Shown piece by piece: positions 35,861 to 41,798 of a stretch of DNA of 64,000 nucleotides. Every line of letters begins with the position of its first letter. Positions within the stretch are counted from its first letter, which is position 1. A program made the translations under genes and the position numbers. The stretch is taken from assembly GCA_038212275.1 (NCBI GenBank), contig JBBQUR010000002.1, positions 64,001 to 128,000 of the forward strand. The letters are read 5' to 3'. The notes under the pieces were generated by a model. It was not told the DNA's origin, searched no databases, and saw nothing but the letters and a program-made list of their open reading frames with translations. Origin of the DNA: Planctomycetota bacterium. GTDB taxonomy: Bacteria; Planctomycetota; B15-G4.

Positions 35861-35975
35861 TTCGCTAGGGGTGTGAGCCACGGGCAGCGTCGCGCGGGAA
35901 GGCGTGGCGAGGGCACGCGGCGCACTGAGATCAAACCCTTGGAACCTGATCAGCGCGAGCTGCGGAGGGAAGCGG
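35861..35975 (+). ncRNA. TPP riboswitch
   Basis: AGGGGTG...CTGAGA...ACCCTTGGAACCTGATC...GCGGAGGGAAG directly upstream of thiC. Confidence 0.9.
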
Positions 35976-36044
35976 GCACGGACAGCGTGCGGCGTTCCCT
36001 CCTCGCGTGCCGATCAGCGCACGCCGTCACGGAGCACGAAACCC

Positions 36045-37892
36045 ATGTCCATCGAATCGCTGCCGCGCACTCCCTCCGCCGGGCCCAAGGCTTCTGACCT
36101 CGCCGCGCCGGCGCTCCCCGCCGGCCTCCCGCCGCTCGGCGACAACCCGTCGACGCAGCGCCAGGGCACCTCGCCCGGCAGCTTTGCGAACAAGGGCCGC
36201 GTCGGCACGGCCTGGACTTTCAGCTCGCCGGACACGCCCGGCATGCCGCAGCCGTCGGAGCAGACTGCGTGGAACTTCATGCCCGCGGACTGGACCTGCC
36301 TCGTTGACGACGCTGCGGCCGTCGCGACGGGCGCTCATGGCAGCCGCGACCCGGCGGCGCTGGCCGCAGCGCGCGCGCGGCCCTCCGCCTGGCGCGCGCC
36401 GGCCGACTTCGTGCCGCGCACGCAGCTCGAGCATGCGCGGCTCGGGACGATCACGCCGCAGATGGTGCGCGTCGCGGAGCGCGAGGCGCACCTCACGCCG
36501 GAGCAGGTGCGCGACGAGGTCGCCGCGGGGCGCATGGTCATCCCGGCCAACATCAACCACCTGAAGTGGGCGCTCGACCCGATGGCGATCGGCCGCGCGA
36601 GCCGCACGAAGGTGAACGCCAACATGGGCGCCTCGCCCGTGAGCAGCGGCACCGAGGAGGAAGTCGAGAAGCTGCGCTGGGCGGAGCAATGGGGCGCCGA
36701 CACGGTGATGGACCTCTCCACCGGCGGCGACCTCGATGCCTGCCGCGCCGCGATCGTGCGCGCCAGCACGGTGCCCATCGGCACGGTGCCGATCTACTCG
36801 ATGATTCTCGGGCGGAAGATCGAGGATCTCGACGAGGAGACCGTGCTGGCCAGCCTGCGCCACCAGGCCGAGCAAGGCGTCGACTACTTCACCATCCACG
36901 CAGGAGTGCGGCGCGCGCACCTCGACCTCGTGCGGCGGCGCCTCATCGGCATCGTGAGCCGCGGCGGCGCGCTGCTCGCCAAGTGGATGCTGCATCACGG
37001 TCGCGAGAACCTCATGTTCACCGCGTGGGAGCGCATCTGCGACGTCCTGCGCGAGCACGACGTCACCTTCTCCATCGGCGACGGCCTGCGCCCCGGCGGC
37101 ACCGCGGATGCGACCGACGCCGCGCAGCTCGCGGAGCTGGCCACGCTGGGCGAGCTCACCGAACGCGCCTGGCGCAAGGGCGTGCAGGTCATGGTGGAAG
37201 GCCCCGGCCACGTGCCCTTCGATCAGATCGAGTTCAACATGAAGCTGCAGCGTCGCCTGTGCCACGGCGCGCCCTTCTACGTGCTCGGGCCGCTGGTCAC
37301 GGACATCTTCCCCGGCTACGACCACATCACGAGCTGCATCGGCGCGACGGCGGCGGGTTACCACGGCGCCGCGATGCTCTGCTACGTCACGCCCAAGGAG
37401 CACCTCGCGCTGCCGAAGAAGGACGACGTCAAGCAGGGTTGCGTGGCCTACAAGATCGCCGCGCACGCGGCCGACGTGGCGCTGGGCATCCCCGGCGCGC
37501 GCGACCGCGACGACGAACTCACCAAGGCGCGCGCCGCGCTGAACTGGGAACGGCACTTCGAGCTGTCCTTCGATCCGGAGCTCGCGCGCCAGTACCACGA
37601 CGAAGACCTGAAGGTGGACACGGACTTCTGCGCGATGTGCGGGCACGACTGGTGCTCCGTGCGCATCAGCAAGGAGATCATGGAGTTCGGCAGCGGCAAG
37701 GATCGCGACGCGCAGCCGGAGCAGCGCACGCGGCCGTCGCCCGCGGTCGCGGCGGAGCGCGAGGCGCTCGACGCCCGCGCGCGTGCGGCGGCCGCCGAGC
37801 ACCACAAGCTCGGCTGCCACAGCGATGTCGTCGCGGACGACGGCGCGGCGAAGCGCCTCCAGGAACAACTGATCTCCGTGCCCCGACCGTGA
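36045..37892 (+). CDS. thiC: Phosphomethylpyrimidine synthase
   Basis: [64 protein letters not shown]. Confidence 0.97.
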
Positions 37893-37942: not shown

Positions 37943-38296
37943 ATGACCCCAGCTGAATCCGCCCTGCCCCTCGCCGACCAGGAGTGCGTGCCCTGCAAGG
38001 GCGGCGTGCCGCCGCTGACGCCCGCGCTTCTCGAGCCGCTCGCGAAGCAGCTCCCCGAGTGGACGCTCGTGAAGGCGCACCACCTGGAGCGCGAGTTCGG
38101 CTTTCCGGACTTCGCGTCGGCGCTGGCCTTCGTGAACGAGATCGGCGCGGTGGCGGAGAAGCACAAGCATCACCCCGACCTGGAACTCGGCTGGGGTCGC
38201 GTCGGCGTGACGATCTTCACGCACAAGATCGACGGCCTCACGCAGGCCGACTTCGTGCTGGCCGCGAAAATCGACCGCCTGCAGCTTCCCCGCTGA
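37943..38296 (+). CDS. Pterin-4-alpha-carbinolamine dehydratase
   Basis: CVPCKGG, AE..KHHPDL, THKIDGLTQADFVLAAKID. Confidence 0.92.
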   Translation: MTPAESALPLADQECVPCKGGVPPLTPALLEPLAKQLPEWTLVKAHHLEREFGFPDFASALAFVNEIGAVAEKHKHHPDLELGWGRVGVTIFTHKIDGLTQADFVLAAKIDRLQLPR

Positions 38297-38352
38297 CCGC
38301 CAGCGAGTCCCTCGACCTCCCCCCATCTCGTCGCACCAGCGCACGGAGTCCC

Positions 38353-38751
38353 ATGCCCGACAGCAGTCATCCCCACTTCAACGACCGCGGCACTCTCGCC
38401 TGGCACGCGACGTTCGACGAGGCGCTCGCCGCGGCGAAGCGTGACGGCAAGCTCGTGTTCATCGAGATGGGCCGTGAGCAATGCAGCAACTGCCGCTCAC
38501 TCGTGGAGTCCGTCGTGACGCAGGCGAATGTCGCGAAGCTTCTGCAGGATGGTTTCGTCGCGGTGGCCTCGGACATCGACGACCCCGAGCCCGCCGTTCT
38601 CGACCTGGCCATGGCGAACCTGCCCGATGCGATGATGCTGCCCTTCGTGCTCTTCACCGACGCCGAGGGGAACTTCCTCGCCGGTGGCCACGGCGCCGTG
38701 AACCCCTCCGCCTTCGCCAGGACGCTGCAGACCCTCGCCGAGAAGCGCTGA
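38353..38751 (+). CDS. Thioredoxin-family protein
   Basis: W..FDEALAAAKRDGKLVFI..CSNC..LPFVLFTD; RBS GGAG. Confidence 0.85.
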   Translation: MPDSSHPHFNDRGTLAWHATFDEALAAAKRDGKLVFIEMGREQCSNCRSLVESVVTQANVAKLLQDGFVAVASDIDDPEPAVLDLAMANLPDAMMLPFVLFTDAEGNFLAGGHGAVNPSAFARTLQTLAEKR

Positions 38752-38863
38752 CACCCCCGGCGTGAGCAGCGCCCTCGGCGTGAGCGGTGCGAGCGAGACA
38801 ACAGCTGCCAGAAGTCGCGACGAGGCGTCGCGACACCTCATCACGCGGCTCGCTCGGACACCC

Positions 38864-38896
38864 GTGTGATGTTGAGGCACTGCCTCTACATCACAC
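38864..38896. promoter_or_regulatory. 33-bp near-perfect palindrome
   Basis: GTGTGATGTTGAGGCA-C-TGCCTCTACATCACAC; 15 of 16 arm positions match. Confidence 0.6.
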
Positions 38897-38917
38897 AGGC
38901 CGCGTGAGAAGGGTTCG

Positions 38918-39156
38918 TGAGAGCTGTCGAAGGTGTCCCGGTCCTGGCACCTGGGGTTGACGGGTCACCCCGGCAGCGGTCACTCCGGCTGCGAGCCATA
39001 CGGTGAGTGGGCCGGAGGGCAAATAATTCTGGAGCCGTCCCACCGGCTTCGAGAACAGGGGTAGACTCAACATCCACAAGCGTGCCCCGAATGGGCACAC
39101 CGAGAGGGCGGAGGCCCCCAAATGGCCCGGGAGCTGCTATCCCGGGCCATTGCTTT
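38918..39156 (+). ncRNA. Candidate structured non-coding RNA, family not recognised; strand inferred
   Basis: Lower-GC intergenic stretch with four hairpins, possible long-range pairings and a final 12-bp stem. Confidence 0.5.
39121..39156 (+). terminator. Terminator-like hairpin
   Basis: AATGGCCCGGGA-GCTGCTA-TCCCGGGCCATT followed by a weak GCTTT tract. Confidence 0.5.
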
Positions 39157-39215
39157 GGATGGCGCCGCCCGCTTCCACTCCTTCTCCTGCCCCTCTCGAC
39201 CCGAAGAAGGCCACG

Positions 39216-41798
39216 ATGCCCCCGCTGCCGCGATTCCCGTTGCCGCTCCGCAGGTCTCGCACCGGGCTGACTGCCTTGCTCGTGACGTGCTGTGCGCTTG
39301 CGATGTCGACGCACGTGGCGGCGCACGTGCTGGTGCAGGCCGCGCGGCCTGGCAGCGGCCGAGTCGCCCCGCATGACGTGCTCGACGCGCCCCTCCGGGA
39401 AGCGCTGGCCGCCGCACGCAGCGTCGCAGCGCCGTCGCAACTCCCGGTCTATCTCGTGATGGTTGAGCAGCTCGACGGTGGGCGCGTCGCGGAGTCGCTC
39501 GGCGGCGTGCCGCAGAACGCGCGCCGCGCCGCCGTCATCTCGCGCCTGAAGCAGCACGCGGCGACAACACAGTCTGCCGTGCGTGCGGCGCTCGCCTCGG
39601 CGCAGGCGGCGGGCCGTGCGGGCAGCGTTCAGTTGCTGTGGATGGGCAACGCCGTGGTCTTCACCGCGCAACCCGACGTCATCGAGGCCCTGGCCGCACT
39701 GCCCGGCGTCGATCGCATCCGCCTCAACCTGGATCCGGACCCGTCGCAGGTGCAGGACGCCGTGTCGACGCCGCTCGCTGCCGCACCGGCCCGCGCGCCG
39801 ATGCCGGGGCCTGCGATCGCGCCCATGCCCGCACCGGCGCCCATGCCCGCACCGGCGCCTGTCGCACCGGCGGCCATCGCGGCGACGCTGGGGACGGCGC
39901 CCTATCCTTTTGCCGACGACTTCGAGTCGGGGACGCTGCAGCCGTGGTGGACGGTGGCGACGACGGGCAGCGGCTACGCGACGGTCAGCACGGCCAACGG
40001 GCCGGTGAACACCTGGCATGTGCTCATGGCCACGTCGGTGGACGGCGTGGATTCCACCGCGAGCCTCACGCTCTGCCTGAACCTGCTGGGCCAGTCCGAC
40101 GTCGGCATCCGCTTCCAGCACAAGTCGTTCAACGACGACGCCGACGCGCAGGACGGCGTCTTCGTCAGCACGGACGGCGTCACCTGGAAGCTCGCGCTCT
40201 CGCTGCAGAACGGCACGGCGACGTACTCGCCGAAGACCATCAACCTCGACGTGGTCGCGGCCTCGCTCGGCCTCTCCTACACGAGCAGCTTCTTCGTGCG
40301 CTTCCAGTGGCACGACAACTTCAACATTCCGTCGGACGGCTTCGGCTTCGACAACTTCGAGATCGGCCCGGGCCTCTACGTGCCGCCGCCGGCGCTTCCC
40401 GAGGCCAACCTCGTCGCGCTCCAGGCCCCGCAACTCTGGGAGCTCGGCTATCGCGGCGAGGGCGTACTCGTCGGCACCATCGACTCGGGCGTGCTCATCA
40501 CGCACCCGGACCTCGTGCACCGCATCTGGAACAACCCGGGTGAGATCGCGGGCAACGGCCTCGACGACGACGCCAACGGCTTCATCGACGACGTGCACGG
40601 CTGGGACTTCATCAACGGCACCGGCAACGTGGTCTCGACCGACCCGCACGGCACGAGCACGGCCGGCATCGTGGTGGGCGACGGCGGCGGCGGCAAGGCC
40701 ACCGGCATGGCGCCCGGCGCGACGCTGCTCGTCTGCAAGGTGCTGAGTCAGGCCAGCTACTGGCTTGCACAGCAGTACTGCATGCAGGAAGGCGTGGGCG
40801 TCATCACCTCCAGCTACAGCTACAAGTGGGCCGACGTCCCGCAGCCCGACTACCACATGTTCCGGCAGCTCACGGAGATGGAACTCGCGGCCGGCGTGAT
40901 CCACGCCAACTCGATCGGCAACCAGGGCTCGCTGCTGTCGAGCTACCCGGTGCCGTTCAACATCTCGACGCCCGGCAACTGTCCATCACCCTTCAGGAAC
41001 CCGCTGGACGTGGTGGGCGCACAGAGTTCCGTGCTCGGTTGCGGCGGCATCCAGCTGCCGCTGGACAGTCTCTACCTGCCTTCGGGCCGCGGCCCCGCCG
41101 CGTGGGACAACATCACGCAGTACAACCCGGCCTACGCCTACGCGCAGAACAGCGCCTCCTGGGATTATCCGTACGGCGGCTTCTCCGGCACGGGCCCCGG
41201 CCTGCTCAAGCCCGACCTCATGGCCTACGCGACGAACGTGACCACGGCCACCATCAGCACGACGTACACGATCTTCTCGGGCACGTCGGCGGCGACGCCG
41301 CATCTGGGCGGCGCGCTCGCCCTGCTCCGCCAGGTGCAGCCCGCGGCGCTGCCGCGCCACCTCGCCGCCGCGCTCGAGCTCTCCGCGAAGGACCTCGGCG
41401 TACCGGGCAAGGACAACCTCTTCGGCTCGGGCCGCATCTCGGCCTTCGACGCCGCGCGCCGGCTGCGCATTCTCGGCCGCATGAGCGACATCACGCCCGC
41501 GCTCGGCCACTCCGTCACTCTGGAACTCTTCGGCTACCCGTCGGCGCAGCTCTACGGCTTCTTCGCCGCGTCGATCTTCGACGGGGCCGGCGCCTTCAAC
41601 CTCTTGGCGCCGTTCTTCGCGCTCGGCCTGCCGCCGCTCGGGCCGGCGGGCACCGCGTCGGTGCCGCTGCTGCTGCCCAATGACCCGATCCTGGTCGGCG
41701 TCACCGTGTGGTTCCAGTTCGCTGCCAAGAACAATGACGCGACGTGGGGCAGCGGCGCGCTCATCTCCGTGCCCGAGGCGATCACGATCAAGCCCTGA
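39216..41798 (+). CDS. Secreted S8 (subtilisin-like) serine peptidase with accessory domains
   Basis: Triad motifs IDSG, HGT, FSGTSAATP; DDDANGFIDDVHGWDF; LKPDL; propeptide and Pro/Ala linker. Confidence 0.92.
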   Translation: MPPLPRFPLPLRRSRTGLTALLVTCCALAMSTHVAAHVLVQAARPGSGRVAPHDVLDAPLREALAAARSVAAPSQLPVYLVMVEQLDGGRVAESLGGVPQNARRAAVISRLKQHAATTQSAVRAALASAQAAGRAGSVQLLWMGNAVVFTAQPDVIEALAALPGVDRIRLNLDPDPSQVQDAVSTPLAAAPARAPMPGPAIAPMPAPAPMPAPAPVAPAAIAATLGTAPYPFADDFESGTLQPWWTVATTGSGYATVSTANGPVNTWHVLMATSVDGVDSTASLTLCLNLLGQSDVGIRFQHKSFNDDADAQDGVFVSTDGVTWKLALSLQNGTATYSPKTINLDVVAASLGLSYTSSFFVRFQWHDNFNIPSDGFGFDNFEIGPGLYVPPPALPEANLVALQAPQLWELGYRGEGVLVGTIDSGVLITHPDLVHRIWNNPGEIAGNGLDDDANGFIDDVHGWDFINGTGNVVSTDPHGTSTAGIVVGDGGGGKATGMAPGATLLVCKVLSQASYWLAQQYCMQEGVGVITSSYSYKWADVPQPDYHMFRQLTEMELAAGVIHANSIGNQGSLLSSYPVPFNISTPGNCPSPFRNPLDVVGAQSSVLGCGGIQLPLDSLYLPSGRGPAAWDNITQYNPAYAYAQNSASWDYPYGGFSGTGPGLLKPDLMAYATNVTTATISTTYTIFSGTSAATPHLGGALALLRQVQPAALPRHLAAALELSAKDLGVPGKDNLFGSGRISAFDAARRLRILGRMSDITPALGHSVTLELFGYPSAQLYGFFAASIFDGAGAFNLLAPFFALGLPPLGPAGTASVPLLLPNDPILVGVTVWFQFAAKNNDATWGSGALISVPEAITIKP

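Follow-up and report, generated by a model that had tools for sequence, protein, structure and literature searches.

What lies between a thioredoxin-like gene and a secreted protease gene in an uncultured planctomycete, and is it one large structured RNA or something smaller? The stretch of DNA analyzed here, referred to as the window, comprises 64,000 nt (positions 64001–128000 of contig 2) of a 4.65-Mb metagenome-assembled genome that is 91% complete and has a G+C content of 70% and a T frequency of 0.149. On its plus strand, a gene for a 132-aa thioredoxin-like protein (38353–38751; Pfam Thioredoxin_7, E = 2e-12) is followed by a gene for an 860-aa secreted subtilase with a signal-peptide-like N terminus (39216–41798; Pfam Peptidase_S8, E = 1.8e-33). 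The two open reading frames (ORFs) are separated by 464 nt, in agreement with the gap of about 460 nt noted earlier, and the "S8" of the downstream gene stands for the Peptidase_S8 subtilase family and not for ribosomal protein S8. An initial sequence-only reading placed in this gap a single 239-nt, multi-stem and possibly pseudoknotted RNA (38918–39156) that matched no known family, and offered two options for its role: a stand-alone small RNA (sRNA) or a leader for the S8 gene.

Several other features of the neighborhood can be set out before turning to this proposal. Upstream, ORFs 35904–37892 and 37990–38300 resemble by eye ThiC and a pterin-4a-carbinolamine dehydratase, and the many long shadow ORFs on both strands reflect a G+C content of 70%. 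Past the thioredoxin-like gene, 63 nt beyond its stop codon, is a perfect 9-bp hairpin (GTCGCGACG-AGG-CGTCGCGAC; 38814–38834) without a U tract, which may be the 3′ structure of that gene. A 39-nt imperfect palindrome follows at 38861–38899, with 19-nt arms that are 89% complementary; it is a dispersed REP-like repeat found at ~23 places in its own genome in both orientations, and no match to it was seen among the relatives searched.

Extent of the conserved unit

How much of the proposed 239 nt behaves as a structured RNA? Fold z-scores were obtained against dinucleotide shuffles, 200 for each stretch. The plus strand of 38918–39156 folds at −118.9 kcal/mol (z = −3.89) and none of its 200 shuffles does as well, compared with z = −1.75 and 10 of 200 shuffles as good for the minus strand. 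This folding signal resides mostly in the 3′ part: positions 39068–39160 of the plus strand reach z = −5.30 (0 of 200 shuffles as good), whereas the value for 38918–39060 is marginal (z = −2.23, 4 of 200). Most of the stems listed in the original proposal can be found again. The inverted repeats CTCCGGC/GCCGGAG (38983–39017) and GTGCCC/GGGCAC (39082–39098) and a 12-bp repeat, AATGGCCCGGGA/TCCCGGGCCATT (39121–39151), were all detected, and the stem at 39027–39055 is present in the minimum-free-energy fold. The exception is the stem at 38951–38973, which can be drawn but is unused in that fold.

Comparison with related genomes restricts the conserved part further. A BLAST search of 38860–39170 against 40 relatives matched only ~39036–39165. 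Of the family's own genomes, 6 of 15 had this match, and the 25 genomes from other families had none. Covariance models, a first one built from six sequences and a second from twelve, identified one copy in each of 11 of the 16 genomes of the family (the source genome included), none in 26 genomes of the other four families of the class, which is represented by only 42 species genomes in the collection, and none in the 146 genomes outside the family in a sample of the phylum. Two order-level matches (L050 in G016 and L051 in G039; E ~0.006) were dismissed as chance terminator matches, neither having a thioredoxin or S8 gene nearby.

An exact-pattern scan of species genomes returned 17 stretches, of which 8 were judged from their flanks to be true homologues and 9 to be chance, and contributed two new records. 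The same type of scan over metagenome contigs returned 101 stretches; nine of the 80 that were fetched were true according to the model, and since one duplicates the copy in G003, 8 were new. The resulting comparative set holds 20 distinct sequences. Homologues and covariation, by which the sequence-only reading had proposed that its RNA be judged, were found for the 3′ ~90 nt only. One member of the set, L022, carries the full element at 90.5 bits beside a thioredoxin-like gene 59% identical to that of the window, in a record titled as a Myxococcota bacterium metagenome-assembled genome; all other named homologues are Planctomycetota, and the L022 contig or its label may be misassigned.

What, then, of the 5′ two thirds? 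The ~140 nt at 38918–39060 have no counterpart in the relatives or elsewhere in the source genome, and a search with 38900–39030 likewise found no second copy in that genome. Among homologues, the conserved unit begins anywhere from ~54 to 316 nt past the upstream stop codon, and the corresponding spacer shrinks to ~54 nt in G003. Because the 5′ part is unmatched and unique and the spacer varies in length, the possible long-range TCCTG/CAGGG and TGAG/CTCA pairings of the original proposal are partnerless in the relatives. Its first three stems, and the pseudoknot or long-range pairings, are specific to this genome, and one of the stems overlaps a promoter-like block described below. Stems 1 and 2 fall in a spacer (38918–39020, plus strand) that lies outside the conserved unit. 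Stem 3 (39027–39055), whose loop holds a C-rich block, was also considered as a conserved structure, and similar hairpins can be drawn in several relatives; by eye, on an ungapped alignment, they range between 80 and 88 in i+j, and stem 3 was not accepted because the pairing registers differ.

A single 239-nt RNA would account for the stems that do exist and for the z-score of the whole stretch. Set against the unmatched 5′ ~140 nt, their marginal fold, the collapse of the spacer in G003 and a promoter-like block falling inside the proposed RNA, it is hardly credible. The relatives point to a smaller feature, which extends over ~39021–39158 with the promoter-like block included. Its conserved RNA-like part is ~90 nt long (39068–39158) and consists of three hairpins, H1, H2 and H3, that follow a TAnnnT block. 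For the reading of G+C-rich DNA from sequence alone this is a caution, as two thirds of the proposed structure is non-conserved spacer and the key hairpin was missed.

The absence of a known family was borne out. None of the 4227 models of Rfam 15 matched anywhere in the window at the gathering threshold, and in E-value mode only sub-threshold matches appeared, which differed between the window and the homologue in G004, a member of another genus. The best of these weak matches was to BjrC68 (RF02353), an sRNA of Bradyrhizobiaceae, with 19.8 bits (gathering score, 39). BjrC68 resembles the element in having two G+C hairpins, the second of them terminator-like; the match lies on the minus strand (39097–39158) and does not recur in the G004 homologue. 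We rejected BjrC68 as the identity of the element, since the resemblance is one of generic hairpins, below threshold and on the wrong strand. A search of the full-text literature found no planctomycete RNA motif upstream of S8 peptidase genes. To our knowledge, very few regulatory RNAs have been described for Planctomycetota. The element appears, on the genomes compared, to be a new RNA of a familiar kind that is restricted to one family of uncultured Planctomycetota.

Three hairpins and a U-rich tail

The conserved RNA-like part begins with a 5′ tail (39068–39081) that is variable and purine-rich in the homologue alignments. H1 (39082–39098) reads GTGCCC-CGAAT-GGGCAC in the window and is found in the individual folds of all 20 sequences. 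Its pairing is kept while the sequence of the stem and the length of the loop (4–21 nt) are free, and double changes occur at 4 of the 5 modelled pairs. A joiner, ACC..GA (also given as ACC..UGA), leads from H1 to H2.

H2 (39104–39119) is the best-conserved hairpin of the element and was overlooked in the sequence-only reading. In the family form, GGGGC-GGAG-GCCCC, the stem is bordered by an A.C mismatch and one more G-C pair, and this forms a near-invariant core. The window has the same G-C pair and A.C mismatch around GGGC-GGAG-GCCC, so that by eye one G and one C are missing symmetrically. Four of the five H2 pairs never vary and one varies to G.U, with 100% of cells paired across the 20 sequences. 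By eye, the flanking G-C and A.C are replaced in G009 by A-U and A-U, and G010 and L091 have a UGAG loop in place of GGAG. Being invariant, H2 does not covary, and the case for its pairing consists of the hairpin energy of ~−11 kcal/mol, one symmetric deletion and one variant. Variation in H2 is also undersampled, since the metagenome copies were ascertained through the H2 sequence itself. Elsewhere in the source genome, 83 places match an H2-like 12-mer with one mismatch and none has the surrounding architecture, a count that is uninformative because the DNA is 70% G+C.

H3 (39121–39151) is formed in the window by the perfect 12-nt inverted repeat AATGGCCCGGGA/TCCCGGGCCATT. Across the 20 homologues it is a G+C stem of 10–12 bp with a mean energy of −22.0 kcal/mol, and it starts 1–8 nt after the end of H2 without overlapping it. 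Double changes were counted at 7 of 10 pairs, a figure in which GC-to-CG changes are inflated by four rows that are shifted one column in the palindromic stem. Clean compensation is seen for GGCUCGGG/CCCGAGCC, found in both G008 and G009, and for a changing outer pair. The U-rich tail of the window, TTGCTTTGG (39150–39158), closes the element, and over the 20 homologues the 9 nt after the H3 stem contain a mean of 5.35 U, against a genomic T frequency of 0.149. H3 and its tail have the make-up of an intrinsic (Rho-independent) terminator, namely a G+C stem-loop followed by a U-rich tract. A consensus terminator scan called H3 in two of the four loci scanned (L048 and L046) and left it uncalled in L041 and in the window, where the U tail is weak.

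Taken together, 97.0% of the cells of the 20-sequence model alignment are paired, against a mean of 82.7% for shuffled alignments, and 0 of 500 shuffles reach this value. Double changes occur at 11 of 20 pairs, which again 0 of 500 shuffles reach, and controls in which the structure was slid along the alignment give 34–61% paired. The element is assigned to the plus strand because six G.U cells would become A.C if read on the other strand and because the U tail is present on the plus strand only. Folding shows the same contrast, with z = −5.3 for the plus-strand core and −1.75 for the minus strand of 38918–39156. A small ORF starting from an AUG in H3 behind the GGAGG of H2 was also considered. 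By eye, this AUG is present in 13 of 20 rows, and the ORF was rejected because the U of the AUG is one half of a covarying base pair (columns 90/121 read U-A, G-C or C-G).

Could these palindromes act without any dedicated RNA function? H2 and H3 might be DNA palindromes recognized by a transcription factor, or H3 might be the terminator of the upstream gene with H1 and H2 as its 3′ untranslated region. Both hairpins are palindromic and highly conserved in sequence, and at several loci the element begins only 54–62 nt past the upstream stop codon, such that H3 is also the first terminator after the upstream gene. Nonetheless, H1 stays paired despite free changes in its sequence and loop length, a plus-strand RNA is indicated by the G.U pairs and by a U tail on one side only, and a TAnnnT hexamer with blocks at fixed spacing is conserved ahead of the element. 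With these observations, we regard the explanation as highly unlikely.

The promoter-like block and the subtilase gene

Where would transcription of the element begin? A −10-like hexamer, TAGACT (39062–39067, plus strand), lies just ahead of the 5′ tail. The hexamer is TAGACT, TAAACT, TATGCT or TAGGCT in 20 of 20 homologues, 12–17 nt upstream of H1, and as the search pattern required TA..CT this tests its presence and not its exact sequence. Positions T1, A2 and T6 are invariant and the middle varies. When the 12 genome homologues are aligned without gaps on the hexamer, three shared blocks appear at fixed spacing: an A/T-rich block, a C-rich block and CGA..AGG. The A/T-rich block of the window, AAATAATTCT (39021–39030), read from this alignment and its position-specific information content, is possibly an UP-like promoter element. 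The C-rich block, GTCCCACC (39038–39045), occupies the −35 position: all 12 genome homologues have it 17–18 nt before the hexamer. The invariance of T1, A2 and T6, together with the rigid spacing, suggests a promoter rather than RNA structure, and its position would put the start of transcription at ~39073–39075.

This putative promoter agrees with the sigma-70 pattern in one half only. A TAnnnT −10 element is present in 20 of 20 homologues, plausibly spaced from the RNA body that follows, whereas the conserved C-rich block takes the place of a TTGACA-like −35 element 16–18 nt upstream. A sigma-70 consensus scan called no promoter here in the window, in L041 or in L046, because the −35 position is C-rich and not TTGACA-like. 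Across the source genome, a weight matrix of the block scores above 12 at the locus itself and nowhere else, and the block is therefore specific to this locus.

To which gene does the promoter-like block belong? All 14 loci with enough flanking sequence have a same-strand Peptidase_S8 ORF downstream; the other six have only 79–371 nt of flank. Variable downstream genes had been expected to favor a trans-acting RNA, and the outcome is the opposite. From the terminator tail to the first ATG the distance is 16–166 nt across loci, with the reservation that some true starts may be GTG, and it is as short as 16, 20 and 26 nt in L045, L039 and L040, which leaves no room for a separate subtilase promoter. 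Upstream, a thioredoxin-like gene is the neighbor in 19 of the 20 homologous loci. The one exception is L086, a metagenome contig with tandem S8 genes (~39–1115 and 1335–2429 in oriented coordinates) between which the element is found; here the upstream neighbor is a second S8 gene, and the block and three hairpins still precede S8. That the element keeps to the S8 gene when the upstream gene differs also speaks against its being the 3′ end of the upstream transcript.

The family genomes that lack the module provide a further view of the same question. G002 (L055), G005 (L054), G006 (L053) and G013 (L056) give no match to the model and keep the thioredoxin–S8 synteny. By eye, each has a C-run followed ~17–19 nt later by TAnnnT, ahead of other leader hairpins, and the weight matrix gives moderate support, with its best match at the expected place in 2 of the 4. 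Their leaders contain different stable hairpins and no terminator. Of the module, G006 still has an H1-like hairpin (GUGCC...GGCAC) and a joiner (CCCGAG), and G002 and G013 have in common a different conserved leader ending in ...CAGTCTTCATGG.

On the basis of the invariant S8 context, the short spacing, L086 and the module-less genomes, we therefore consider that the promoter-like block belongs to the subtilase gene and that H1–H2–H3 would be a module within the subtilase leader. Synteny as such is weak evidence, since all homologues are fairly close kin. The thioredoxin-like gene is conserved upstream as well (19 of 20), and over such short evolutionary distances this arrangement is compatible with an independent sRNA gene.

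Attenuator leader or small RNA

How might such a module act? We hypothesize that it is a terminator-containing 5′ leader that serves the subtilase gene as an attenuator, yields a small RNA as well and has H2 as its effector site; from comparative sequence evidence we place the probability of this reading at roughly one half, and of the two options offered at the outset, a leader for the S8 gene appears to be the better fit to the context. Transcription would start at ~39074 from the putative TAnnnT promoter (TAGACT, 39062–39067), and the first ~85–90 nt of the transcript would fold into H1, the invariant H2 and H3. H3 and its U tail would then act as an intrinsic terminator that stops part of the transcripts 16–120 nt before the start codon, such that the subtilase mRNA would represent the read-through fraction only and the prematurely terminated product would be a stable small RNA of ~90 nt. 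H2, with its G+C stem, A.C mismatch and GGAG tetraloop, could serve as a sequence-specific recognition site for a factor that sets the ratio of termination to read-through, and a protein is more likely in this role than a metabolite.

The layout of the locus agrees with attenuation: in all 14 loci with enough flanking sequence, the putative promoter, H3 and the S8 start codon follow one another on the same strand. A conserved antiterminator pairing that would exclude the terminator was not found among the 20 homologues. Folds of the nascent transcript pair the 5′ strand of H3 with upstream sequence by at least 4 bases in 16 of 20, yet only 3 of 20 homologues have a 5′ tail that pairs with the 5′ strand of H3 better than its shuffles do (p < 0.05). 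These three (G014, G015 and L084) have duplexes of −17 to −20 kcal/mol with p values of 0.006–0.01, and the window, at −2.9 kcal/mol against a shuffled mean of −4.9 kcal/mol, does worse than its shuffles. We also examined whether the G-rich strand of H2 pairs with C/U-rich sequence past the terminator; the match is striking by eye in several loci and was rejected, the p values against dinucleotide shuffles being 0.11–0.76 over 12 loci.

The same facts bear on whether the element is a small riboswitch, in which H1, H2 and the joiners (ACC..UGA, CC.AA) would form a metabolite or ion aptamer that controls the H3 terminator and with it the secreted protease. Such a riboswitch would be expected in a leader with an intrinsic terminator as its expression platform, the invariant nucleotides are concentrated in and around H2 and include the conserved A.C mismatch, and the pairing of the 5′ tail with H3 in G014, G015 and L084 would be the closing helix of a three-way junction, in competition with the terminator. 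This closing helix, however, is not conserved and is absent from the window, only ~45 nt are available from the start site to the terminator, the element has a single gene context and a one-family distribution, and no Rfam riboswitch model is matched even weakly or consistently. A riboswitch is thus quite unlikely. Riboswitches with intrinsic-terminator platforms share with the element a structured leader and a terminator ahead of an extracellular peptidase gene; one of them, GEMM or c-di-GMP-I, is reported upstream of subtilase genes among others (PMC1950547). The element differs from terminator-platform riboswitches in matching no Rfam model, in having no conserved antiterminator and in the very small size of its aptamer-sized region.

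The remaining option is a stand-alone, trans-acting sRNA gene of ~90 nt with its own promoter and terminator, for which any effect on the subtilase would be incidental read-through. The promoter-like block, the strong terminator, the compact three-hairpin body and the single copy per genome would all suit such a gene, as would the failure to find a conserved antiterminator, and by eye G014 has a separate terminator-like hairpin after the upstream gene and before the promoter block. This was the other of the two roles first offered. It is difficult to reconcile with a downstream gene that never changes (14 of 14) and can lie 16–26 nt from the terminator, with an element that stays beside S8 in L086 despite the changed upstream neighbor, and with module-less family genomes that keep the promoter-like block before the S8 gene. 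Moreover, the best-conserved stretch would make a poor base-pairing seed, held as it is in a G+C hairpin of high stability (~−11 kcal/mol) whose loop is only 4 nt long. An Hfq-dependent sRNA would call for an accessible conserved seed and for Hfq, and no Hfq gene (PF17209) was found in the 91%-complete source genome. We consider the stand-alone gene possible but doubtful. A more specific candidate, a CsrA/RsmA-titrating sRNA of the CsrB/RsmZ type, is unlikely: the element has a single GGA loop, which is UGAG in G010 and L091, and CsrA (PF02599) was not found in the same 91%-complete genome.

Is there precedent for a leader that would be both attenuator and small RNA, as in the reading we favor? 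In the published account of Rli51, a small RNA in the long 5′ untranslated region of the Listeria monocytogenes metalloprotease gene mpl, both attenuation of mpl transcription and action in trans are reported (PMC11394854). The same duality of cis-acting leader and sRNA before a secreted-protease gene is proposed here, with the difference that Rli51 belongs to another phylum, precedes another protease family and, according to that account, has been studied functionally by experiment, whereas the present element is described from comparative sequence data; no kinship of the two in sequence or structure would be expected. For rnTrpL of Sinorhizobium meliloti, a leader transcript ended at an attenuator terminator is reported to persist as a small RNA (PMC6614838). 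The likeness is the release of a leader transcript as a small RNA by an attenuator terminator; rnTrpL requires a leader peptide ORF as well as stalling of the ribosome, whereas our element contains no conserved small ORF.

The module can also be compared with terminator/antiterminator leaders that are operated by proteins. In the PyrR, TRAP and LicT/SacY RAT systems, a short hairpin of invariant sequence beside a leader terminator is the usual layout of a protein-operated attenuator, and the protein site overlaps or competes with the terminator. H2 differs from these sites in that it ends 1–8 nt before H3 and does not overlap it.

Could the element represent a new class of signal-responsive attenuator? 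A dedicated RNA-binding protein, or else a small molecule, might bind H2 together with H1, thereby switching H3 and controlling secretion of the subtilase in this uncultured class of Planctomycetota, and the released ~90-nt RNA might also act in trans; we offer this as a speculative and rather unlikely extension of the attenuator leader. For this uncultured planctomycete lineage, the element is a concrete, compact and testable candidate for the control of a secreted protease, and the unusually invariant H2 hairpin should ease the finding of its effector.
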